A stretch of 64,000 nt of DNA from a virus (taxonomy: Duplodnaviria; Heunggongvirae; Uroviricota; Caudoviricetes), in the IMG/VR virus record IMGVR_UViG_3300045988_154997, positions 32,001 to 96,000 of that record, one strand, 5' to 3'. A program made the translations under genes and the position numbers. Positions 1,930 to 33,397 of the stretch are shown piece after piece; position 1 is the first letter of the stretch, and each line of letters begins with the position of its first letter. The notes below the pieces were generated by a model, which saw only the letters and a program-made list of their open reading frames with translations, ran no database searches and was not told the origin of the DNA.

Positions 1930-2107
1930 GTGTTTTTACCTTTCTGGTTTTTTTGATTTTGTCATTGGGGAAGCCTACGAATTTCCCATACATCGAAATC
2001 GCAACTTCTTTTGCTGATTGGTGACAATCGGGCTTGTCTGGACACACCAGACAAGCCTTGCCAGTTTCAGAAGCAGCGATAAGAGAGCCGAAACATCCTT
2101 TACGCAC
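1904..2107 (-). CDS. small Cys-rich protein (possible zinc ribbon); existence uncertain
   Basis: 67-aa ORF with GTG start 2 nt after the upstream stop; Cys pattern C-x13-C-x2-C-x5-C; 3' end overlaps the dnaE start by 26 nt. Confidence 0.25.
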   Translation of the reverse strand: MRKGCFGSLIAASETGKACLVCPDKPDCHQSAKEVAISMYGKFVGFPNDKIKKTRKVKTHEGSDGSN

Positions 2108-2109
2108 GA

Positions 2110-3345
2110 TTAACCAAATATTTTTTGAACAACTTCACGTGCCGCTTGCGCAGAAGCTGAAGGGAGTTTGTTAATGAAAGAACGCTCAATACCTGTCACA
2201 AAGTCGCCTCGCATCATTCCAATCTTGGCCGACAACAAAAGTTCACGAGGGCCAATCGGCTGACTGATCAGGTGTTCTTCGTATCCATCGCGAACGATAC
2301 CGGCAAACTTAACCATCTTTTCAGCGTATTCATCCACGATGCCAGCATTTATCAACATGTTGATCTCTGCCTCTTTGCTCATGTATTTCACATTCGAAAC
2401 GATGCCAAAACGCGAAAAGTTAGCGGCGTTCTGGATGTTTGTACCCTGGTACAAGCCGGTTTCATCACCAGATCCGTTCGTGTTGCCAGTGCCAATGAAA
2501 GCAAACCGTTCATGCGGAGTAATGCGACGCCATTCTTGAGTCGCCTCTTTGATGACCAACGCTTCACCTTCCAGCACTGGCTGATACACGCCAAGAATCT
2601 GTGGAAACGCAAAGTCGTATTCATCCGCGAGGTAAACCCAGCCATGCTTCATTGCGAGCGCAAGCAAGCCAGGCTCGAAATACGTAGAGCCATCACGCGC
2701 CAGAATTTGTCCCGTAACATGAGCCTCTTCCATTGATGCTGTATGTTGGGCACGGATTAACGGACGATTGAGCAAAGCACATAGTTGTGTAGGCAATGAA
2801 GATTTGCCTGTTCCTGCATGACCCCACAAATAGCCTGGTATGCCAAGTTCAAGCATCATGAAAATGTCTTTGATCAGTTCGAAGTCGCCATATACGTATC
2901 CCTTCTTCACTTCTGGAACGAACTCTGGAAACGGCGTATTGACGTTGACGCTAACCATGAGCGGCGTCCCACGTTTTGTTCCGAGTTCTTTCACCGTTAC
3001 ATTTAGCAGTTCGTGAGCTGCGACCAGATCTGTCTTGTACTCAACTGTGCCTGTATAGCCTGGGCTATTGGTCACGCCAGATGATTTGGCCATTTCGCTT
3101 ATTTGCTCGGCACGTTTAGCTTGAATTGCATCAAGTGCCTTTTTCGATAGCGTTGGCTCATCTGGAAACTGCGTTGTGTACATTTTCAGTACGGTGTCAG
3201 GATCGGCATCTTTTACTGACTCAGGAATGCCCTCGCAATTACCATTGGCTACATGGGACTTAAAATAGTGAAATGATTTTCCGCACCACTTGCAAACAAG
3301 GTAATCAGAAGGATTTTTTTCATTTTGCAGTGCAGTAGTAGTCAT
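2110..3345 (-). CDS. AAA+ ATPase, CobS/MoxR-like
   Basis: Walker A GHAGTGKS and Walker B VYLADEYD in a 411-aa protein, immediately downstream of a VWA-domain partner (CobS/CobT-like pairing). Confidence 0.7.
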   Translation of the reverse strand: MTTTALQNEKNPSDYLVCKWCGKSFHYFKSHVANGNCEGIPESVKDADPDTVLKMYTTQFPDEPTLSKKALDAIQAKRAEQISEMAKSSGVTNSPGYTGTVEYKTDLVAAHELLNVTVKELGTKRGTPLMVSVNVNTPFPEFVPEVKKGYVYGDFELIKDIFMMLELGIPGYLWGHAGTGKSSLPTQLCALLNRPLIRAQHTASMEEAHVTGQILARDGSTYFEPGLLALAMKHGWVYLADEYDFAFPQILGVYQPVLEGEALVIKEATQEWRRITPHERFAFIGTGNTNGSGDETGLYQGTNIQNAANFSRFGIVSNVKYMSKEAEINMLINAGIVDEYAEKMVKFAGIVRDGYEEHLISQPIGPRELLLSAKIGMMRGDFVTGIERSFINKLPSASAQAAREVVQKIFG

Positions 3346-9372: not shown

Positions 9373-9428
9373 ATTGAGTCCTTTCAAGTGAGTATCCGAA
9401 AGAACTATACAGTTAACGTGCGTAAAAA

Positions 9429-9448
9429 GTAAGTGCTTACCTATCATT
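9429..9448. promoter_or_regulatory. recurrent intergenic motif GTAAGTGCTTACCTATCATT (palindromic core GTAAG-TG-CTTAC)
   Basis: Exact 13-mer CTTACCTATCATT also at 15558-15570 and 27927-27939; sits in the divergent region between the glutaredoxin operon and the 273-aa gene. Confidence 0.5.
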
Positions 9449-9521
9449 TATTGATAGAAGAATAGCCGCCTGTCGTGTGATACTATTTACAGAACTAAAC
9501 TGGCTTTCCACAAGGTGTAAA

Positions 9522-10343
9522 ATGACTATCCTTGAAAATCCTGATGCGAATGTTGAATCTGTTTATAGTCTTCATCCAACCACGTTGTTTCATTTTACAA
9601 AAAACGAAGATGCTTTCTATAGCATATTGGCTGAGAAATATTTTAAACCATTTCTTGCTCGCGAGGAAATAAGAGGAGTCGGGGGACGCAGGAGGTTTGC
9701 AGTACCAATGGTATCGTTTTGTGACATAAAACTATCACAAATCAGAGATCATAGCGGAAAATATGGAGAATTCGGTCTTGGGCTAACTAAGTCTTGGGCG
9801 GAAAAGAAAGGTCTACACCCAGTTCTATATATGAATAAGAGTAGTGAAATATTTTCTAAATACAATGCCAGAATTCGACTTATTAAAAATAAGTTGGTGC
9901 CGCTTTGGAAGGCTAGAGGAAATTTAGATACCAAAAACAGAATAGAGTTTGAGAAATTGAAAGCAGAATATTCTGATCTATATAATTTACTGCGTTATAT
10001 GAAAAATTACAGAGGCAAGCTAGAGCGAAAAGATAATAAAACAATAGAGAATTATATATATGCAGACGAGAAAGAGTGGCGTTATGTGCCAGCTCCTTTT
10101 ATTGGTGATTTATGGCCTAGTCTGAGTTTGGAGCGTGTTATCACTTCTGATGACAAAGCAAAAATTAGCTCAAAATTTTCAAAGTTTGGCATTGATTTTG
10201 AGTTCAATGATATAAAATATATACTTATACCTAAAGAACAACATATCCAAAAGCTAATTAACTTTCTCTCAGGTTTAGATGGATTTGAATCTTCAATTAT
10301 TAGCAAAATTCTGACCATGGATAAAGTAAAGCAAGATTTTTAA
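9522..10343 (+). CDS. DUF2971/Abi-like protein (tentative family assignment)
   Basis: ATG at 9522 with AAGGTG RBS. Motifs LFHFTK...FYSIL, FAVPMVSFCD...HSGKYGEFGLGL and C-terminal EKEWRYV echo the LYKY / MWSHY..HKGFCIGF / E.EWR pattern of the DUF2971-like protein at 23116-23835. AT-rich. Confidence 0.45.
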   Translation: MTILENPDANVESVYSLHPTTLFHFTKNEDAFYSILAEKYFKPFLAREEIRGVGGRRRFAVPMVSFCDIKLSQIRDHSGKYGEFGLGLTKSWAEKKGLHPVLYMNKSSEIFSKYNARIRLIKNKLVPLWKARGNLDTKNRIEFEKLKAEYSDLYNLLRYMKNYRGKLERKDNKTIENYIYADEKEWRYVPAPFIGDLWPSLSLERVITSDDKAKISSKFSKFGIDFEFNDIKYILIPKEQHIQKLINFLSGLDGFESSIISKILTMDKVKQDF

Positions 10344-10369
10344 TTTTTGGTTTAACGGGAGCCTAATTA

Positions 10370-11581
10370 GTGTCAATATTTTTAAGCGAAAAGGAAATGC
10401 AAAATTGGATAATTGACAAATTATCTGATCAAGATGGATTATATAATTCAATCATCAATATTGATAAATTAAATGAATTTAATCCGAAAAGACCCGAAGA
10501 GAAAAAAATTAAGGAGAGTTATCAGTTTTGTTTAAAGAACATAACATTGTTACATTTAATGACAGATGATGAGAATATCTCAGCAACAAAATCTGAGATA
10601 TTAAGACCTGATGTCGTTGCTTATTCAACAGAGAATGAATCCTTAGTTCTTATTGAGTTAAAAAATTTTTCAACACCAACAAGGGAAGCTGGAACTGAGC
10701 TAGTGGCATATGCTGCGGAACTAAAAAGTTACTTGTCATACTTGTCTGATGGAGATATTACCAATGTACTTATATCACCTGACTGGCCACCTTTGGTTAG
10801 ACACTTTATTTTTAATATGATCGTGTGGCAGAAGAAAAACTTTCTATGTTTAGAACCTTGCTATGATTTACAAGGTAACGTATCACTTACTCCTTTAGAT
10901 ATTAATAAATTAGTTATTGCGGAAGAAGCACTCAAGTTCTCATTTCGTCATCTTGGCGGGTTTCATATATGTTTGTATGATGATGAAATGTATAATCAAC
11001 CGACTTCCACTTCTCGTTTACATTCGAAATTGAATGTTATTAAAGCCAGCATGGCAAAAATGTCCTCAGACGGTGAAAAGACTAATAGCCATGGGTTTGC
11101 TATTTTATGTAGAAATTTGAACGAGAGAACTTTAGCACCATATACGATTACTCTAGTTAATGTTTCTGCGTTTTCTTCCATAGAGCGATACTTTCATTCG
11201 CCACAAATATCCAATGCTTCTCAACTCCCTAGAATAGGACAAAAAATTTATGACATTTACACTCATTACCAACCATCAGGTTTTGGGGCATCAATGTCGA
11301 AAATTTACAATTCTGGGAGGGCATATTTAGAAAAAATTAATTGCAAGCCGCGGATCGAGGTTATAGACACCTGGGATGTATTGCAAGTACATACACATGC
11401 GCCTTATATGGAAATGGTTCATATTGAAACGTGGGGAGTTTTTAAAGAAAAATTGATTGAAGGTCTAAATGAATGTTATGAGGATGAATATTACACACCT
11501 GATTTTAACGATGTAGATTTTTGCATGGTGTGTATTGAATCCTTAATTGACCAGAATTATGAATTTATAAAACTTTTTTGA
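10370..11581 (+). CDS. PD-(D/E)xK nuclease-like protein with unknown C-terminal domain
   Basis: N-terminal ILRPDVVAYSTENESLVLIELKNFS fits a D ... E-x-K restriction-endonuclease-fold signature; GTG start at 10370 with GGGAG RBS; 403 aa; about 33% GC. Confidence 0.5.
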   Translation: MSIFLSEKEMQNWIIDKLSDQDGLYNSIINIDKLNEFNPKRPEEKKIKESYQFCLKNITLLHLMTDDENISATKSEILRPDVVAYSTENESLVLIELKNFSTPTREAGTELVAYAAELKSYLSYLSDGDITNVLISPDWPPLVRHFIFNMIVWQKKNFLCLEPCYDLQGNVSLTPLDINKLVIAEEALKFSFRHLGGFHICLYDDEMYNQPTSTSRLHSKLNVIKASMAKMSSDGEKTNSHGFAILCRNLNERTLAPYTITLVNVSAFSSIERYFHSPQISNASQLPRIGQKIYDIYTHYQPSGFGASMSKIYNSGRAYLEKINCKPRIEVIDTWDVLQVHTHAPYMEMVHIETWGVFKEKLIEGLNECYEDEYYTPDFNDVDFCMVCIESLIDQNYEFIKLF

Positions 11582-11584
11582 AGA

Positions 11585-11604
11585 AAAGGGGCCGAAGCCC
11601 CTTT
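11585..11604. terminator. stem-loop AAAGGGGC-cgaa-GCCCCTTT, probable intrinsic terminator, likely bidirectional
   Basis: Directly after the stop at 11579-11581; on the minus strand it is followed by TTTTCTTC, so it also ends the tRNA transcript. Confidence 0.55.
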
Positions 11605-11680
11605 GAATATTGCGCTGAAAAAAAGTGTTGCTAGGATGTTAGCAAGCTATGGTTAAGAACGTCTGCCGTAATTGTCAATC

Positions 11681-11758
11681 ACAGCGTTGAGCGGTCTGGT
11701 TTATGTTAGCGGAGTCTTAATCGAGTTGATTAAAAGGCCAAACCGCTCAACGCTGTGT
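11681..11758. repeat. 16-bp perfect inverted repeat (CACAGCGTTGAGCGGT / ACCGCTCAACGCTGTG) forming a long hairpin abutting the tRNA-Ser 3' end
   Basis: Read directly; arms separated by 46 nt. Confidence 0.6.
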
Positions 11759-11759
11759 C

Positions 11760-11846
11760 TGGCGGAGAGTAATGGAATCGAACCATCATCGTTTGCACAA
11801 TGGGACGATTTTCAAGACCGCTTGAGCACCATGCTCCCTACTCTCC
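11760..11846 (-). tRNA. tRNA-Ser (anticodon TGA), type II with long variable arm, CCA encoded
   Basis: Minus-strand sequence GGAGAGT...CGGTCTTGAAAATCG...GGTTCGATTCC...ACTCTCCGCCA: 7-bp acceptor stem, anticodon loop CTTGAAA, T-loop TTCGATT. Confidence 0.7.
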
Positions 11847-12070
11847 GGCCGTTGTGGTGGCCGGTACTGAATCTCCGGCATACGGTGCAGCCAATTAGGA
11901 CTACGGACGATCACCGCTCGCGAAAGGGAAGATTTGCGGCCGCATTTCCCTAACATCCAAGAAAGCTATCGCATCAGTCTGCGAATCCACCACAACGGTA
12001 AGATCACTACCTTTCGACCAGTCATTGTGCACATGAACGACGATTAACCGTAATGATCTTATCGTTGTAT

Positions 12071-12147
12071 TGGTGCCGGTTAACGGACTCGAACCGCTGA
12101 CATCCTGCTTACAAGGCAGGCGCTCTACCAACTGAGCTAAACCGGCA
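12071..12147 (-). tRNA. tRNA-Thr (anticodon TGT), CCA encoded
   Basis: TGCCGGT-TT-AGCTCAGTTGGTAGAGC-G-CCTGC-CTTGTAA-GCAGG-ATGTC-AGCGG-TTCGAGT-CCGTT-AACCGGCA-CCA; canonical cloverleaf. Confidence 0.85.
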
Positions 12148-12150
12148 ATT

Positions 12151-12237
12151 TGGTGGGGAGTGATGGAGTCGAACCACCCGAGTCGCAATGACAGTAGATT
12201 TACAGTCTGTCCCGCTACCTCTACGGACTAACTCCCC
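12151..12237 (-). tRNA. tRNA-Tyr (anticodon GTA), type II, CCA encoded; two non-canonical pairs in the anticodon stem
   Basis: Anticodon arm and variable arm AGACTGTAAATCT.C.GTCAT closely resemble E. coli tRNA-Tyr as recalled from memory; acceptor GGGGAGT/ACTCCCC; T-loop TTCGACT. Confidence 0.65.
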
Positions 12238-12242
12238 TAAAT

Positions 12243-12317
12243 TGGCGATGGTGGGTGGATTCGAACCACCGACCAGTTGGTTAACAGCCAACTGCTCTAC
12301 CGCTGAGCTACACCATC
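12243..12317 (-). tRNA. tRNA-Asn (anticodon GTT), CCA encoded
   Basis: GATGGTG-TA-GCTC-AGCGGTA-GAGC-A-GTTGG-CTGTTAA-CCAAC-TGGTC-GGTGG-TTCGAAT-CCACC-CACCATC-G-CCA. Confidence 0.85.
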
Positions 12318-12581
12318 AATTCAGCACTGCCAGTATTTATTACTCAACAGTGCCAATCGCGGCGGTGTTAGTTTCTGCCAGGAAACACACCGCTACTGGC
12401 ACTTTCCGTTAGTGCCAGACGTTTTCGACTTCGCTCAATAGAAGGCAAAATCTTTAAGTAGATGATGTTTCTGAGGACAGCACCTACTTTGTAATTTATA
12501 CAATGTGATGTATGGAATCATTTGTTGTGAAAACAGGCACTAATGGCAACAGTGGTTAAACCTATACAACAATCCTGTCTT

Positions 12582-12703
12582 CACAACGTTGAGGCCACTA
12601 CTCCGATTGAATGTTTGCCCAACATGTTACATATCAACGCTCGCCGGTATCTCTGTGAATAGAACCTTAGAATTGATAAAAATGTAATGGCCTCAACGTT
12701 GTG
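12582..12703. repeat. 15-bp perfect inverted repeat (CACAACGTTGAGGCC / GGCCTCAACGTTGTG) separated by about 92 nt in an ORF-free region
   Basis: Read directly; similar in sequence to the arm of the 11681-11758 repeat (CACAgCGTTGAG). Confidence 0.6.
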
Positions 12704-12781
12704 TGCTGGCTAACCATACCAGCCGGGCTACGTCGCCGCTTTTTAACCCAGTATAAACGACATAATTGAACAAAATGACGT

Positions 12782-12857
12782 AACAGGATGGGCGGTCATT
12801 GGCTAAGAATCCGGGAGTCGTATATGAGTTGAAAATATACTGACCGCCCATTCTGTT
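12782..12857. repeat. 17-bp inverted repeat (AACAGGATGGGCGGTCA / TGACCGCCCATTCTGTT, one mismatch), spacer about 42 nt
   Basis: Read directly; followed by a further 9-bp hairpin GGAGGGAAC/GTTCCCTCC at 12867-12891. Confidence 0.55.
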
Positions 12858-13094
12858 ACTTCATCGGAGGGAACTCTCATGTTCCCTCCTGCGTTCTGCA
12901 ATCACACTCGCTCAGTGTGTCCCATTTCGGTAACGAGGCTGGAAACTGACCTCGCTGGTGTTTGGCTTATTAGGCTACTGCCAGATAGACTTCTTCGTTT
13001 GCACTTGTATTTAAGTTCAAACAGTCGCGTCTCAACGAAAACAAAGTCATCTTATACATAAAAGATAGGTAAGTAAATACTTATTATTGTATTT

Positions 13095-13385
13095 TTATTC
13101 GGTTGTGACTTTTTTGATCAAGGCCACTCTACGACTAGGTGTTCTTGTGATGGTGGCAGTGAATTGTTTCGCTTGGATAGTAATGGTTTCGTTCTCCTTA
13201 AGTTGCCCGTAGCGAGTTTCCACCAGGGTGCCAAGACGCCACAGACCATCATCGATACGTTTATGACTAGCAAATTTAATCAGCAACAGTTTTACGACTA
13301 ACTGACCTACGTAAAAGGCGAATGCGACTCCGGCCGCTAAGAAATAGGTGACCAACCACCATTCCCAAGAAGTTAACTTGCTCAT
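13095..13385 (-). CDS. small membrane protein (96 aa)
   Basis: N-terminal hydrophobic helix WEWWLVTYFLAAGVAFAFYVGQLVV; ATGA overlap with the upstream small ORF. Confidence 0.45.
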   Translation of the reverse strand: MSKLTSWEWWLVTYFLAAGVAFAFYVGQLVVKLLLIKFASHKRIDDGLWRLGTLVETRYGQLKENETITIQAKQFTATITRTPSRRVALIKKVTTE

Positions 13386-13534
13386 TTTTTCACCTTTGTT
13401 TCATGAACTACTCGATACACGCGCTTTCCGATGCACAGTGTTTTGGTTTTAAGTTCCTGCTTAATCAAATCATGACAGATGCCGAAGCCGATAAGGAAGC
13501 CAGCCATAAAAGCCAATGAGATGTATGGAATCAT
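13382..13534 (-). CDS. small membrane protein (50 aa; below the ORF-track size cutoff)
   Basis: ATG at 13534 with AGGAGCC RBS; translation MIPYISLAFMAGFLIGFGICHDLIK...; overlaps neighbours at both ends (ATGA). Confidence 0.35.
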   Translation of the reverse strand: MIPYISLAFMAGFLIGFGICHDLIKQELKTKTLCIGKRVYRVVHETKVKK

Positions 13535-13746
13535 TTAAAGGCTCCTGATTCTACTAATTGCTGTAGCAATAATTTCCCTTTATCAGTTAACTGGTAGTTG
13601 GCCGAGCGCCACGTTTCAGAAACGTTTGCAACCAACCCTAAACGCTCTAACTTAGCTCGCGTTTTAGGCTTCCAGTACTCAGGGAACTCCGGCCACTTAC
13701 TTATTTCATGAAGCGTTTCTTTCTCCCGTTTACTTAATACGATCAT
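13531..13746 (-). CDS. hypothetical protein (71 aa)
   Basis: ORF only; coupled to the ligase stop. Confidence 0.4.
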   Translation of the reverse strand: MIVLSKREKETLHEISKWPEFPEYWKPKTRAKLERLGLVANVSETWRSANYQLTDKGKLLLQQLVESGAFK

Positions 13747-15065
13747 TCTTTATCTCCGATTCGATCTTCGGTATCGCGTAAGCAACGCGGCCATTTCAGT
13801 CGTGGGTGGCGTAAGCTGCCATCAGGTGTTTTCTCGTGACAATGAACCTCGACAATACGACCACGGTACTTCTCTTTGTTGTTCCAGATCTCGTCCAGAT
13901 ATTTATGCTTAATGCCGCTCGCACGAACGATGACGCCGTTTTCAAGACGAATAACAATTTTCCCAAGCGTGTTGGCAAAACCAGAGTCCGGGTCGCCCGG
14001 CTCAAAATCGATAATTTCACCATCTTCTGAATCTTCGTCTTTTAACTTCCACCAGCTGCGGGTACGTTTAAACTCGTAAACAGAGTTCGGATCTTTGCCC
14101 ATCTCCCCTTCTTCGTTATCGTCCAGGCGTTTCATGAAGCGTTCGATGAAGTCTTCGTGGCTATGGATGATGTAGAACGGATGCAGGTGAATGTCTTGTG
14201 CGTAGCCTTCACTGCGATCGTTTTTGAACAACGCCACGAGCATAGCCAGGCGCTCTTTCAGCTTCATACCTGTCTTTGCATACTCTTTGGATTTAGCCTG
14301 TGCTCGCCATTCCGGTAGGAAGAAGTCGAAAACATGATAAATAGCGCCAATTGCCTGCACGTTCTTTTTGCGCAATGCAGATACGGACTGGTTAAATGAA
14401 CCGGCTGTGCCTTCACCATCGAAGAAGATGTGTTTGTGGCCTGAAAGTTTGCCTAATTCGAGCATGGCTGGCTTTAGGTGATCGAGAGACGTGATTGGAT
14501 TACCAGTACGAGAAAGGAAGTTAACCTCTTCTTCGTCAACAATAACCTCGCAAATTACTCGCAAACCATCGAGCTTAAGGCTGCCAATCATCGGCCATTT
14601 TGCTTTAGGGTTTGGCTTGAAGGGGTATTTGTCGCCTTTTTCTTTATACGGTGACGCCAGCTGCACCTCGAATTTCGGAATGGGATTTTCAAAAACCTTG
14701 TTGCATAGGCTAATCCCAACGCCAGCTTTCGGATCTTTTAAGAGGAAACGACGGAAGACGTCCTGCCCATCGGCGCACATTGACGCCACGATAGACTCAA
14801 CAGCAGCTATTGCTGCGTTCCCCGTCAGCTCGCGAGAGGCCAGCTTATTCAGTACATCAATGGCTTTTTCGTCACTTGGGACGGACTCACTAAGCGGCTC
14901 TGCCACTTTGTATTTCTTTACCCCAAAACGGATGAAAGGGTTGAGCATCAATGAAACCATGCTTTGTTCAAAGTCATCCATGTTGGCCAATGCCTCTTTT
15001 TTTGCATTGGTTCCCATAGCTTTCATTTCGTCCAGCTTATGCTTAAGTGCGATCAACTTTTTCAT
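13743..15065 (-). CDS. ATP-dependent DNA ligase
   Basis: Adenylation motif I KxDGxR present as SLKLDGLRVI; 440 aa. Confidence 0.8.
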   Translation of the reverse strand: MKKLIALKHKLDEMKAMGTNAKKEALANMDDFEQSMVSLMLNPFIRFGVKKYKVAEPLSESVPSDEKAIDVLNKLASRELTGNAAIAAVESIVASMCADGQDVFRRFLLKDPKAGVGISLCNKVFENPIPKFEVQLASPYKEKGDKYPFKPNPKAKWPMIGSLKLDGLRVICEVIVDEEEVNFLSRTGNPITSLDHLKPAMLELGKLSGHKHIFFDGEGTAGSFNQSVSALRKKNVQAIGAIYHVFDFFLPEWRAQAKSKEYAKTGMKLKERLAMLVALFKNDRSEGYAQDIHLHPFYIIHSHEDFIERFMKRLDDNEEGEMGKDPNSVYEFKRTRSWWKLKDEDSEDGEIIDFEPGDPDSGFANTLGKIVIRLENGVIVRASGIKHKYLDEIWNNKEKYRGRIVEVHCHEKTPDGSLRHPRLKWPRCLRDTEDRIGDKE

Positions 15066-32000: not shown

Positions 32001-33397
32001 ACAACACCTTTAGTTGTAAGGCTTGCGTCTTCCATCGCAACTGCACCGGCAATCTCTTCAGCACGATCAGCAGCAGCTTCCGCACGGGTCGCAGCGGATT
32101 CAGCAGCAGTTTTGCTCTGAGATGCTGCCGTCGCACTGCCTGCCGCCTCTGTTGCTTTCGTGGATGCCGTCGTGGCGCTGCCCTTCGCTGCTGACGCCTG
32201 TCTGGTCGCCTCATCTTTTGAAGCAGACGCAGATGATGCCGATGACGCCGCCGAACTGGCGGACGATGCGGCAGCCGTTTTTGAGGATTCTGCGCTGGTT
32301 TCCGACGCTTTCGCGTTCGTTTCGGATGTCTTCGCTGCGGAAGCAGACCTCGCTGCTGCGCTGGCCTGTTCAGTGGCTTCGCCAGCCTTCGTTGTGGCTG
32401 TTGAAGCAGACGATGCGGCACTTTCTGCCGATTTTCCGGCGGCGGTGGCACTGGCTGAGGCCTGCCCGGCACTTGTTGACGCGGCACTGGCAGACGACGC
32501 AGCCGCTGTTTTTGAGCCTGCCGCAGCCGAGGCGCTCTGTCCCGCTGCCGTTTCAGAAGACCTGGCGTTCGTCTCGGACGTTTTTGCCGCCTTCGCGGAA
32601 TTTCCTGCCGCCGTTGCCGAGGAAGCGGCATTACTGGCGCTCGAGGCTGCGCTCGTTTCTGATGATTTCGCTGCCTCTTTTGAGGCCGCCGCATCCCGGG
32701 CTGAGGTGGCAGCTTCTGACGCCTTCGTGGTCGCGGTGGATGCAGAAGTGGCTGCAGATTTTTGTGACGCTGCAGCATTCGTTTCAGACGTTTTCGCGGC
32801 ACCGGCACTGGTGGCCGCCGCGCTTTTTGAGGACTCTGCAGCGGATGCACTTTGAGACGCTTGAGAGGCTTTTTCTCCAGCGGTATTGGCGCTTTCTGCT
32901 GCTGCGGCAGCACTGGCCGCCGCCTCACGAGCTTTGTCGCCAGCAGCATCAATCGCGTCAGTGTTATTTTTATACCACTCAACGTTTTCGTTGTGCTCGT
33001 TGACGATCTGCATTAGCGGCTTAACGGTCACTTCTGTACCGTCTTCACGCTCGATTGTCACCTCATCCAGAGCAGTCAACCAACTGCGCATGGACTTGGA
33101 ATCAGCCGACATACGCGACATTAGTGCTGTAAAGCGCGCGCTAAACTGTGTTAAGTCGCCTTCATAGGTCGTAATGATTCGGCACGGAACTTCAGACTGA
33201 GTTTCGCCGGTATAAGGTTCTGAGAGAACAATGTTCGTATCACTGGTTACGCGCTTGATCTCATACAGCTTATTGTCGGGGCCAATGACGATCATCCCCG
33301 GCAACACACCATTAGCTGTTACGTTCCAGGCTGTCCCTGCCCCAACCAGAGTATTGCTGCCCTGTGTAAATGTGATAGTACCTTCCCTGTACCACAT
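29099..33397 (-). CDS. tail fiber protein (1432 aa) with Ala/Ser-rich repeat region, fibre repeats and C-terminal intramolecular-chaperone-like domain
   Basis: Repeated GN(A/S)ATATKLQTAR...GVxFDGSxDI fibre motifs; long AS-rich low-complexity segment; C-terminal DIETLQDRYADELLSLRPVWYRSI...GLIAEEV resembles self-cleaving chaperone domains of tail fibres/tailspikes. Confidence 0.8.
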   Translation of the reverse strand: MWYREGTITFTQGSNTLVGAGTAWNVTANGVLPGMIVIGPDNKLYEIKRVTSDTNIVLSEPYTGETQSEVPCRIITTYEGDLTQFSARFTALMSRMSADSKSMRSWLTALDEVTIEREDGTEVTVKPLMQIVNEHNENVEWYKNNTDAIDAAGDKAREAAASAAAAAESANTAGEKASQASQSASAAESSKSAAATSAGAAKTSETNAAASQKSAATSASTATTKASEAATSARDAAASKEAAKSSETSAASSASNAASSATAAGNSAKAAKTSETNARSSETAAGQSASAAAGSKTAAASSASAASTSAGQASASATAAGKSAESAASSASTATTKAGEATEQASAAARSASAAKTSETNAKASETSAESSKTAAASSASSAASSASSASASKDEATRQASAAKGSATTASTKATEAAGSATAASQSKTAAESAATRAEAAADRAEEIAGAVAMEDASLTTKGVVKLSSAVDSTSESLAATPKAVKVVNDNANSRVPSNRKINGKALTADITLTPKDIGTLNSITMSFSGGAGWFKLATVTMPQASSIVYIALIGGAGYNVGSPHQAGISELVLRAGNGNPKGITGALWKRTAVGLTNFAWINTSGDTYDIYVEIGNYATSVNIHWDCTANASVSIYTSPTYSASKPSSVTDGVVYTMYSTHQKPTPLDIGALPTTGGTVSGPLSVTGGITGTLNGNASTATKLQTARSIGGVGFDGSANINLPGVNTTGNQNTTGNAATATKLQTARKISGVPFDGSTDITLTAAHVAAFARRATGSYADADGGVPWNAESGAYNVTRTGDSYILANFYTGVGSCRTLQIKAHYKNGGLFYRSSRDGYGFESGWEQVYTTGFMPQPADINAPTAAAGWLNSGNGTAFTTAQFITWLNNQGAFTNKHWIARCSWTYANNNYIDDTGCGRIDLSGSVIEVFSNKATSHYTIRVTTTTTSGHGGVNNAEFIYVYNGSDYAPGWRRSYNTRNKPTASDVGALPLSGGTLSGGLTSSGEIVSKYANGFRIAYGNYGFFIRNDGGSTYFMLTASGDTLGSWNSLRPIIINNSSGVVSIGNGLNVTGGVNGSLNGNASTATKLQTARNINGVKFDGSGDININTLVSRGRVTALSGSTQGTAGIQMYEAYNNSYPTTYGNVLHMKGASAAGEGELLIGWSGTSGAHAPVFIRSRRDTTDAAWSAWAQVYTAKDSIPGVNTTGNQNTTGNAATATKLQTARKIAGVAFDGSADITLTAANLNAYTKTEVTNLLSSYASRSSLTGYSGNLDIIAETLVVKSGGSGGFAIWDIGTTTSGANMYIDPNPGINTVWRSTSSRRYKKDIETLQDRYADELLSLRPVWYRSICRGDRKDWGYYGLIAEEVGEIAPQYVHWREPTNNDSPGDISSNGMVAEGVMYERLVVPLIHHIQQLTKRVEELETKLNSPKE

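Follow-up and report, generated by a model that had tools for sequence, protein, structure and literature searches.

A candidate minus-strand operon of stable RNAs headed by a tmRNA-derived tag RNA in an SSU5-like phage-plasmid

What can a phage encode in a stretch that carries long inverted repeats and holds no convincing open reading frame (ORF)? The question is raised by positions 12318-13094 of a 64,000-nucleotide DNA (hereafter the window; positions 32,001 to 96,000 of IMG/VR virus record IMGVR_UViG_3300045988_154997), for which the original prediction had offered a replication origin, a packaging site or a structured non-coding RNA. The last of these options was borne out. It is very probable that the minus strand carries an operon of stable RNAs, headed by a pseudoknotted RNA with a short reading frame under coding-type constraint and followed by conserved RNA hairpins. 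This first RNA, here termed the tag RNA, appears to derive from transfer-messenger RNA (tmRNA, encoded by ssrA), which is regarded as one molecule, or two paired pieces, combining a transfer RNA (tRNA)-like part with a message part. The best explanation of the locus as a whole, an RNA operon with a tmRNA-derived tag RNA that acts on the tmRNA of the host, is given about an even chance. The main content had been overlooked because the region was read on the plus strand.

Judging by sequence identity, the window is an SSU5-like phage-plasmid, since positions 11400-13500 gave matches of 100% with the E. coli plasmids pLH09-a-C and pEc2-51408, of 96-97% with phages CMS-2020a and Cyrano and of 77% with Salmonella phage SSU5. 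The region lies between a minus-strand tRNA cluster (Ser, Thr, Tyr, Asn) and a minus-strand gene run ending with DNA ligase and primase. As originally predicted, it holds no convincing ORF: the RefSeq/PGAP annotation of the identical plasmid places no feature from tRNA-Asn to a 96-amino-acid gene, and no coding sequence is annotated across 12318-13094 in Cyrano or SSU5.

A search for distant relatives using 12318-13094 showed that approximately 110 nt (12900-13054) also match unannotated intergenic DNA beyond the SSU5-like elements, namely in Felix O1-like phages, HK620 and Klebsiella siphoviruses, all in the direction of the adjoining tRNAs or late genes. Read on the minus strand, the segment presents the following elements, the positions of the paired segments being given 5' to 3' on that strand.

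13042 to approximately 12890, minus strand: putative tag RNA, with tmRNA-like message features.
13019-13042, minus strand: 5' arm of the tag RNA, consisting of GUUUUCGUUG (13042-13033), AGAC and GCGACUGUUU (13028-13019).
12970-13002, minus strand: tag reading frame, GCA AAC GAA GAA GUC UAU CUG GCA GUA GCC UAA, giving ANEEVYLAVA and a stop.
12955-12984, minus strand: stop-codon helix, CUGG (12984-12981) with CCAG (12958-12955), comparable to tmRNA helix 5.
Within 12891-12954, minus strand: pseudoknot PKa, stem CGAGG (12954-12950) with CCUCG (12938-12934), and loop UUCCA (12944-12940) with UGGGA (12924-12920).
Within 12891-12954, minus strand: pseudoknot PKb, stem CACACU (12919-12914) with AGUGUG (12908-12903), and loop GCG (12911-12909) possibly with CGC (12893-12891).

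Tag loci were gathered with two independent DNA patterns, one of which was anchored outside the frame. Among the 34 distinct sequences obtained with this outside anchor, 33 contain exactly ten sense codons followed by a stop (TAA in 30, TAG in two and TGA in one); in the window a second UAA follows at 12969-12967. The ratio of non-synonymous to synonymous polymorphism (pN/pS) was 0.55 in the tag frame, compared to 1.7 and 0.71 in the other two frames, with variation lying mostly at the third positions of codons 2, 8 and 10. The encoded peptides follow AN[D/E/S][E/D/N/T/A]x[Y/F]LA[V/A]A, with one variant having K at the second position, and the N4-like phage IME11 has ANDDVVLMAA. The frame has no start codon, and indels between close relatives break any longer ORF upstream, so that no conventional ORF reads into the tag. 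On E. coli tmRNA, an A at position -4 helps to set the frame; this A is kept in all lineages read, while the preceding U at -5 (E. coli U85) is kept in most and is C in the window. In Citrobacter phage Mijalis the homologous frame is read by ARAGORN as a tmRNA tag. The sequences therefore point to a startless frame resumed at an alanine codon (GCA) after a conserved context, as in tmRNA.

The structure that follows the frame is also tmRNA-like. The stop-codon helix is paired in all 43 non-redundant sequences on which a model of this helix and the two pseudoknots was tested; it is invariant there, and the CUGA/UCAG of IME11 represents a compensatory change. Over the same 43 sequences, pairing reached 99.5% for stem S1 and 100% for stem S2 of PKa, and 100% for S1 of PKb, the S2 of PKb being weak in the window (3 bp). 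For the whole model 94.4% of cells were paired, 70 of them with double changes, and at each variable pair both sides had changed in 3-17 of the sequences. The covariation score was matched by none of 500 shuffles, and controls with slid partners paired at 33-41%. Variants of the PKa stem include CGAGG/CCUCG, UGAGG/CCUCA, CAAGG/CCUUG and CAGGG/CCCUG, and those of the pseudoknot pairing CCGA/UCGG, CCAG/CUGG and CCAA/UUGG. Stop codons held in a helix of the helix 5 type and then pseudoknots are thus predicted, in the order known from tmRNA.

Beyond the tag RNA, the features listed in the original prediction were each found to be present, most of them longer than stated. The 15-bp repeat is a 20-nt pair of 95% complementarity (12582-12601 / 12684-12703), the 17-bp repeat a 24-nt pair of 92% complementarity (12775-12798 / 12841-12864) that reaches approximately 27 bp in orthologues, and the 9-bp hairpin lies at 12866-12889. 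A hairpin family on both sides of the tRNA cluster was likewise recovered, as CACARCGTTGAG occurs four times against 0.5 expected, and these copies are exactly the four arms at 11680, 11746, 12582 and 12692. For each of the four hairpins given a z-score below, none of 200 shuffles folded as well.

12866-12889, minus strand: first spacer hairpin, 9 bp with loop AUGAGA; z = -5.3.
12775-12864, minus strand: long hairpin I1, stem of 24-27 bp and a 42-nt loop with a UUCAACUC hairpin and GACUCC; z = -6.7.
12765-12756 (UUAUGUCGUU) with 12737-12728 (GGCGACGUAG), minus strand: conserved stem, RNAalifold pairs 155-164/184-193.
12723-12705, minus strand: hairpin GCUGG...CCAGC, RNAalifold pairs 198-203/211-216, with a compensatory change in two orthologues.
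12582-12703, minus strand: long hairpin I4 of the CACAACGUUGAG family, 20-bp stem and 82-nt loop; z = -6.7.
12524-12587, minus strand: hairpin I9, a weak candidate, GUUGUGAAGACAGG with CCUGUUUUCACAAC (14 nt, 93%), absent from the consensus fold.
12415-12397 (GGCAC...GUGCC) and 12392-12361 (GCGGUGU...ACACCGC), minus strand: hairpins upstream of tRNA-Asn, partly in the consensus fold.
11680-11757, minus strand: terminal hairpin I3; z = -9.9.

The strand was investigated by aligning 22 orthologous regions of SSU5-like elements and folding their minus strand with RNAalifold. The hairpins persist in these 22 orthologues through compensatory changes and through frequent replacements of G-C by G-U, the latter preserving pairing on the minus-strand RNA only. 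As such alternations would be C-A mismatches on the other strand, the hairpins are minus-strand RNA structures. Hairpins and tRNAs also share one orientation behind a conserved promoter, which again places the structures on the tRNA-bearing strand. Single-sequence energies did not distinguish the strand of I1 (-42.1 for the plus and -35.5 for the minus strand), so that the comparison of orthologues alone decides; for I4 they were -46.7 kcal/mol for the minus and -38.6 kcal/mol for the plus strand.

Among the individual elements, I1 keeps 27 pairs, with many GC/GU alternations, and I4 conserves 18 pairs, with nine GC-to-AU and two CG-to-UA double changes. Seven pairs are kept in the first spacer hairpin, both sides having changed in up to 13 of the 22 orthologues, and alignments showed it to be homologous to the spacer hairpin of other phage lineages with arms ...GGUAAGAGCAUU / AGUGCUCUUUCC.... 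The orthologue set contains more conserved hairpins in the space down to tRNA-Asn, where the block at 12361-12415 is 90.6% identical to the SSU5 group. Hairpin I9 and the 3' arm of I4 have GUUGUG in common and their pairings are thus alternatives. Compensatory change on one strand among diverged relatives, as expected of a structured RNA gene, is what these alignments indicate. On one arm of I4, 12683-12715 was also observed to be a 33-nt exact match to a stretch annotated as clustered regularly interspaced short palindromic repeats (CRISPR) on E. coli chromosome NZ_LR778147.1 (1705873-1705905), which looks like a natural spacer against the phage-plasmid.

The RNAs appear to form one minus-strand operon of approximately 1.45 kb, from 13042 to approximately 11600. 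Its order is tag RNA, hairpins, tRNA-Asn, tRNA-Tyr and tRNA-Thr, a tRNA-like module, tRNA-Ser, the terminal hairpin and two terminator-like hairpins, and its remaining elements are as follows.

13049-13077, minus strand: candidate sigma-70-type promoter, TTTACT (13077-13072), 17-nt spacer, TAAGAT (13054-13049).
12243-12317, minus strand: tRNA-Asn (ARAGORN, Rfam, RefSeq annotation of the identical plasmid).
12151-12237, minus strand: tRNA-Tyr (same three sources).
12071-12146, minus strand: tRNA-Thr (same three sources).
11987-12073, minus strand: spacer hairpin I2, within 11849-12073.
11849-11998, minus strand: tRNA-like module closed by a stem of 12 bp, with a variable core and two hairpins whose loops (GACUGA / UCAGU) are complementary.
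11760-11846, minus strand: tRNA-Ser (ARAGORN).
11647-11618 and 11601-11581, minus strand: two terminator-like hairpins with U runs, read from the sequence and not in the consensus scan.

From the position of the promoter, transcription is predicted to start at or within a few bases of G13042. Sigma-70-type promoters lie directly upstream of the tag RNA in four lineages, the equivalents being TTGACA-N17-TATAGT in Mooglevirus, TTGACA-N17-TAGATT in compact lineages and TTGACA-N17-TAATCT in an Erwinia phage. On reading the sequence of the window, no terminator was found after the pseudoknots, and the transcript should thus continue through the hairpins and tRNAs. An Rfam scan of the region (E up to 1), named as a check in the original prediction, recovered the four tRNAs; it returned nothing else but one chance match to a small nucleolar RNA. 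The recurrent motif noted near the promoter is also real. GATAGGTAAG has 12 matches with up to one mismatch against 2.1 expected, and five exact copies in the 64 kb, at 13064-13073 on the plus strand and at 9436, 15558, 27927 and 53849 on the minus strand, the copies, when read in the opposite direction, having ACTTACCTATC(A/T)TT in common. The copy at 13064-13073 overlaps the -35 element and spacer of the tag-RNA promoter, and the motif may be an operator or a phage-specific promoter element.

In the proposed pathway, the first product of the operon would be a tag RNA of 150-250 nt with a resume context, a ten-codon tag ending in LAVA, a stop helix and two pseudoknots, which hairpins would separate from the tRNAs and tRNA-like RNA downstream. 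The candidate processing stems measure 18-27 bp. Hairpin I1 is proposed, from the length of its stem, to be a stabilising stem that is also cut by a double-strand-specific enzyme of the ribonuclease III (RNase III) type. More generally, the anatomy of the operon makes it most likely that the long stems would be processing or protection elements in which RNase III cuts, and that RNase P acting at the next tRNA would free the RNA upstream.

How far, then, does the tag RNA correspond to a tmRNA? ARAGORN called no tmRNA in the window, HK620, SSU5, Cyrano, Carvaje, S115 or IME11, nor in 141 of 143 related loci. When the 64 kb of the window were searched for an acceptor strand that could pair with the 5' end and is followed by NCCA, nothing usable was found, and the Rfam tmRNA models gave no match in 10500-14500 at E up to 1. 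On relatives these models scored 10-33 bits against thresholds of 47-50, with only the resume and tag consensus matching; RF00023 in particular gave 10-15 bits against a gathering threshold of 47. Homology to ssrA was not found to extend further, as only nt 79-125 of E. coli ssrA align, in addition to an 11-nt T-loop match in Mooglevirus.

The tmRNA calls made by ARAGORN in Mooglevirus were rejected, the tRNA domain having been stitched together from a tRNA 3' half and part of tRNA-Lys. In Mijalis (locus L004, 1432-2180, minus strand) the reported 'permuted tmRNA' spans three real tRNAs, the 5' tRNA domain having been taken from tRNA-Lys and the 3' domain from the 3' half of a tRNA that stands alone. 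By the same reading, what was published as 'ssrA' in the near-identical phage Moogle is probably not a complete tmRNA. On these comparisons the tag RNA falls outside the tmRNA family as defined and is best described as a derivative keeping the message half. It lacks the tRNA-like half and cannot enter the ribosome alone.

A possible partner is indicated by the 5' arm, which is antisense to nt 82-104 of E. coli ssrA, across the resume codon. GUUUUCGUUG pairs with ssrA nt 95-104 (tag codons 2-5) and GCGACUGUUU with nt 82-91 across the resume codon. RNAduplex predicted 20 bp and -25.5 kcal/mol for the window arm with ssrA nt 81-105, compared to -10.7 kcal/mol for the arm with the phage's own tag region. 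When the whole 363-nt ssrA was offered, the best site fell within nt 76-112 for 130 of 135 loci and 17 of 22 distinct arms. The arm of the L009 lineage is the complement of ssrA 87-105 save for a 2-nt insertion and one change, and on reading the sequence the two differences from the exact complement in the paired segments of the window arm (C to U and A to G) stay paired through G-U. At precisely these positions the tag of the phage itself has come to differ from the host sequence.

The arm is near-invariant: of 93 unique upstream regions, 89 contain GUUUUCG and 76 contain GCGAC, the two motifs being separated by a spacer of 2 to 12 nt. In most lineages its first five nucleotides are left free in the predicted fold. 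Other partners of the arm were sought and set aside. No consistent cis site was found downstream, CGAAAAC at approximately 12427-12421 is not conserved in relatives, and no acceptor-type partner was found in the 64-kb window. Pairing with the tag RNA's own codons showed no covariation, the arm being invariant while codons 3-6 vary.

An exposed arm of this kind would anneal to the message of the host tmRNA (nt 82-104), which would block the host tag and might also offer the tag of the phage to ribosomes that host tmRNA-SmpB has rescued. That any functional pairing with host tmRNA takes place is put forward tentatively, with the balance somewhat against it. A true message swap, in which the tag RNA would be a trans-acting replacement message and stalled proteins would receive ...LAVA (or LAAA/LMAA) instead of ...ALAA, is considered unlikely.

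Several points weigh against the best explanation as a whole. The evidence is sequence throughout, and it is from this that the transcription start, the processing enzymes and the tmRNA interaction are inferred. The promoter in the window is a moderate match (8 of 12 consensus positions), which the consensus scan did not report. When the arm duplexes were compared with shuffles over the whole ssrA, the z-scores were modest (-0.1 to -4.3), and that the lineages share one target site cannot count as independent support, their arms being homologous. For several lineages, folding predicts that a large part of the arm pairs in cis with the RNA's own resume region, so that it could be a cis element or the remnant of an inverted duplication. 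The ssrA of Salmonella presumably has CGAAACC in place of CGAAAAC, a difference at one position, yet Salmonella phages keep GUUUUCG. A message swap would also require the ribosome to change over to a message in trans, and the tRNA-like RNA found downstream at many loci could supply the missing half instead.

This last possibility would make the locus a self-sufficient split phage tmRNA, in which the tag RNA and the downstream tRNA-like RNA come from one precursor and are joined by spacer-hairpin arms. The module in the window lies between tRNA-Thr and tRNA-Ser and is homologous to one that follows the tag RNA in HK620. Its stems and loop-loop pair covary between variants (GACUGA / UCAGU in the window, GCUGA / UCAGC in HK620), and where present it is always downstream on the same strand, as a split tmRNA would have it; among the 119 loci with sufficient flank, however, only 49 have it, and Cyrano and SSU5 lack it. 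After the tag RNA, every lineage has a spacer hairpin of one family and then a tRNA or tRNA-like RNA, and the arms of such a hairpin could hold both pieces paired after cleavage; at other loci, however, what follows is an ordinary tRNA (Arg, Ser, Leu or Asn).

The analogues in Mooglevirus and Kuttervirus favour the idea by their canonical T loop (UUCAACU in Mooglevirus, identical to that of E. coli tmRNA), acceptor-like stem of 6-7 bp and encoded NCCA end, whereas the form in HK620 and the window has a loop of 9-10 nt that is not a T loop and is usually without an encoded CCA. The module was also considered as an alanine acceptor, and no G3-U70 identity pair was found in any form. Neither ARAGORN nor Rfam calls the module, and the message part would be attached at the RNase P cleavage site, on the 5' side of the acceptor stem. 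As a form, two-piece tmRNAs are well established, their message and acceptor pieces being cut from one precursor by tRNA-processing enzymes (PMC11915505). Taken together, a split phage tmRNA is quite unlikely.

Two analogues of the module deserve description in their own right. In Salmonella phage S115 (Kuttervirus, locus L286) the module is closed by GCCGUU / AACGGC approximately 150-290 nt after the start of the tag; its T loop (GGGUUCGACUCCC) is canonical and its U-CCA end is encoded, and it was not called by ARAGORN or Rfam. In Mijalis (L004, approximately 2060-2125, minus strand) a T arm, an acceptor 3' strand and GCCA are followed 4 nt later by the acceptor 5' strand that matches them (GAAGGGU) and by a sequence resembling a D arm. 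The arrangement suggests a permuted tRNA gene, or else the point where two tandem copies, both decayed, adjoin.

The distribution of the tag RNA bears on whether it has a function in trans at all. Relatives were found in 588 of 50,697 phage records, in 773 plasmids and in 350 of 5426 complete E. coli genomes, including lambdoid prophages of O26 strains. The phages comprise Felixounavirus, Mooglevirus, Kolesnikvirus, Kuttervirus, Gamaleyavirus, Klebsiella siphoviruses and HK620-like phages, with Felix O1-like and N4-like phages among the groups. Among the matches listed, almost every one lies under no annotated feature and none under an RNA gene. In most phages the element sits in or beside a tRNA cluster, one family of spacer hairpins flanks tRNAs and other modules alike, and the tag RNA has no tRNA-like domain. 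This is what would be seen if it were a leader or spacer, with hairpins for the processing or stability of the tRNA operon and a tag-like segment that is a decaying, captured ssrA fragment.

Decay, however, would not keep ten codons and a stop in 33 of 34 sequences with synonymous bias and switches between stop codons, nor would it keep covarying pseudoknots, and a decaying fragment would not persist across unrelated phage families in so many records. Furthermore, the fetched HK620, IME11 and S115 loci contain no tRNA. A mere leader or spacer is therefore improbable.

The element also lies directly after the promoter in several lineages, where a cis-acting transcription element could be expected, for instance one for processive antitermination of the put RNA or boxA type that allows read-through of a long untranslated structured operon; an untranslated transcript should indeed be sensitive to Rho. 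In lambdoid prophages the tag RNA occupies the late-operon leader, between Q/qut and the holin gene, as observed in the E. coli O26 RM8426 prophage (L290, 3501-3694) and HK620 (L003, 1501-1610). This interval between the Q antiterminator and holin genes is presumably the niche in which Shiga-toxin phages carry tRNA genes. Against an antitermination element, no boxA-like sequence was noticed on reading the sequence, and the constraint on the reading frame, the stop-codon switches and the antisense match to ssrA would all go unexplained; such a role is very improbable.

The first two options of the original prediction, with the inverted repeats acting as DNA cruciforms or protein-binding sites, did not hold. 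The region does lie beside a block of replication genes (ligase, primase, helicase, DnaE) and the local cumulative GC skew turns near 12-13 kb, but this turn coincides with the switch in gene orientation and so gives no sign of an origin. In 11500-13500 there is no DnaA box with up to one mismatch, and the most AT-rich 40-mer there is the promoter region; no iterons and no family of direct repeats were found inside the region. The arms vary yet stay paired, including by G-U pairs that exist only in the RNA of one strand, and these elements are also found in unrelated phages that replicate and package their DNA by different systems. On these grounds an origin or packaging site is hardly credible.

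There is next to no chance that the locus encodes a plus-strand protein of 60 amino acids antisense to the tag RNA, as the ORF concerned (12879-13061, the longest in the region), although uninterrupted throughout the segment in most SSU5-like lineages, frequently with an ATG start, has a pN/pS of 1.5 across ten lineages, is not called by PGAP and is interrupted in the L085, HK620, compact and Mooglevirus lineages, all of which keep the RNA features; most likely it stays open through constraint on the RNA.

Some observations concern the surroundings of the operon. A low-GC island at approximately 9400-11600 on the plus strand (GC 0.36, compared to approximately 0.45 elsewhere) contains an AbiGi-family gene and a 403-amino-acid gene of unassigned function. 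It converges with the end of the RNA operon at a common terminator, and Cyrano has other genes in its place. In Cyrano the operon comprises Ser, Thr and Asn within 250 nt, without tRNA-Tyr or the tRNA-like module, while P7 and D6 have the Ser/Thr part in common at 93%. The differences in content between close relatives (12151-12237 and 11849-12070 of the window compared to Cyrano) suggest cassette-like exchange at the spacer hairpins.

A literature search found no description of the tag RNA, the only mention being the genome announcement of Moogle, in which an 'ssrA' was identified with ARAGORN (PMC4319497). In a 2025 paper on a tmRNA database 79 phage tmRNAs are counted, and no entry for an enterobacterial phage was found in its text supplements (PMC11915505). 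Selection seems to maintain the message part of tmRNA alone in hundreds of phages whose hosts are Escherichia, Salmonella, Klebsiella, Shigella, Citrobacter and Erwinia. The same holds for phage-plasmids that are common in the clinic and for prophages of pathogenic E. coli, and annotation pipelines do not report it. If the tag RNA acts on host tmRNA, this would be a new viral control of ribosome rescue and protein turnover, and the old question of why several phages depend on host trans-translation would become testable. A message swap, if real, would be a case of a virus rewriting the degradation tag of its host with an RNA that lost its own tRNA-like half. If the tag RNA has no action on host tmRNA, it still represents a widespread, strongly structured phage RNA family deserving a covariance model, and recognition of the family would also correct the 'tmRNA' calls in Felix O1-like genomes.

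Comparison with known systems places the tag RNA as follows. By analogy of mechanism only, its stems of at least 20 bp flank functional RNAs in the way that rRNA operons and the early transcripts of T7 have processing stems, and the presence of a tRNA or tRNA-like fold directly after an RNA needing a 3' end recalls the tRNA-punctuated 3'-end formation of MALAT1/mascRNA. The stable RNAs C and D (species 1 and 2) of phage T4, of which species 1 is an RNase III substrate, are by description likewise non-tRNA RNAs that are co-transcribed and processed with phage tRNAs; they are not known to have a tag frame or any sequence relation to the tag RNA.

Compared to the enterobacterial tmRNA (ssrA, RF00023), the tag RNA likewise has a GCA resume codon after an A-rich stretch, preceded at -5 and -4 by U and A in most lineages and by C and A in the window, and likewise helix-enclosed stop codons and pseudoknots after the tag. 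Its ten codons read AN(D/E)xx(Y/F)LAVA, where E. coli has ANDENYALAA. It differs in lacking the acceptor stem, the T arm and the CCA end, and in having two pseudoknots only, with no clear pseudoknot 1 (PK1), a length of approximately 150-250 nt, a promoter of its own at the very 5' end or a position inside a tRNA operon, and a 5' arm antisense to the host tmRNA message.

With two-piece tmRNAs (RF04321, RF01849-51) it has in common a message-bearing RNA separate from any acceptor piece. In those permuted forms, however, the acceptor piece lies upstream, whereas no such piece precedes the tag RNA, which in the window has the promoter and a protein gene upstream of it and whose 5' end does not form an acceptor strand. 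RF04321 gave 20-33 bits against 47, these coming from the tag consensus with the tRNA-domain helices deleted in the alignment. Another phage RNA with only one half of a tmRNA is that of mycobacteriophage DS6A, a tag-less tmRNA reported in earlier work to inhibit host tmRNA when expressed in E. coli (cited in PMC11915505). The two would be mirror images, DS6A keeping the tRNA-like half without a tag and the tag RNA keeping the tag without a tRNA-like half.

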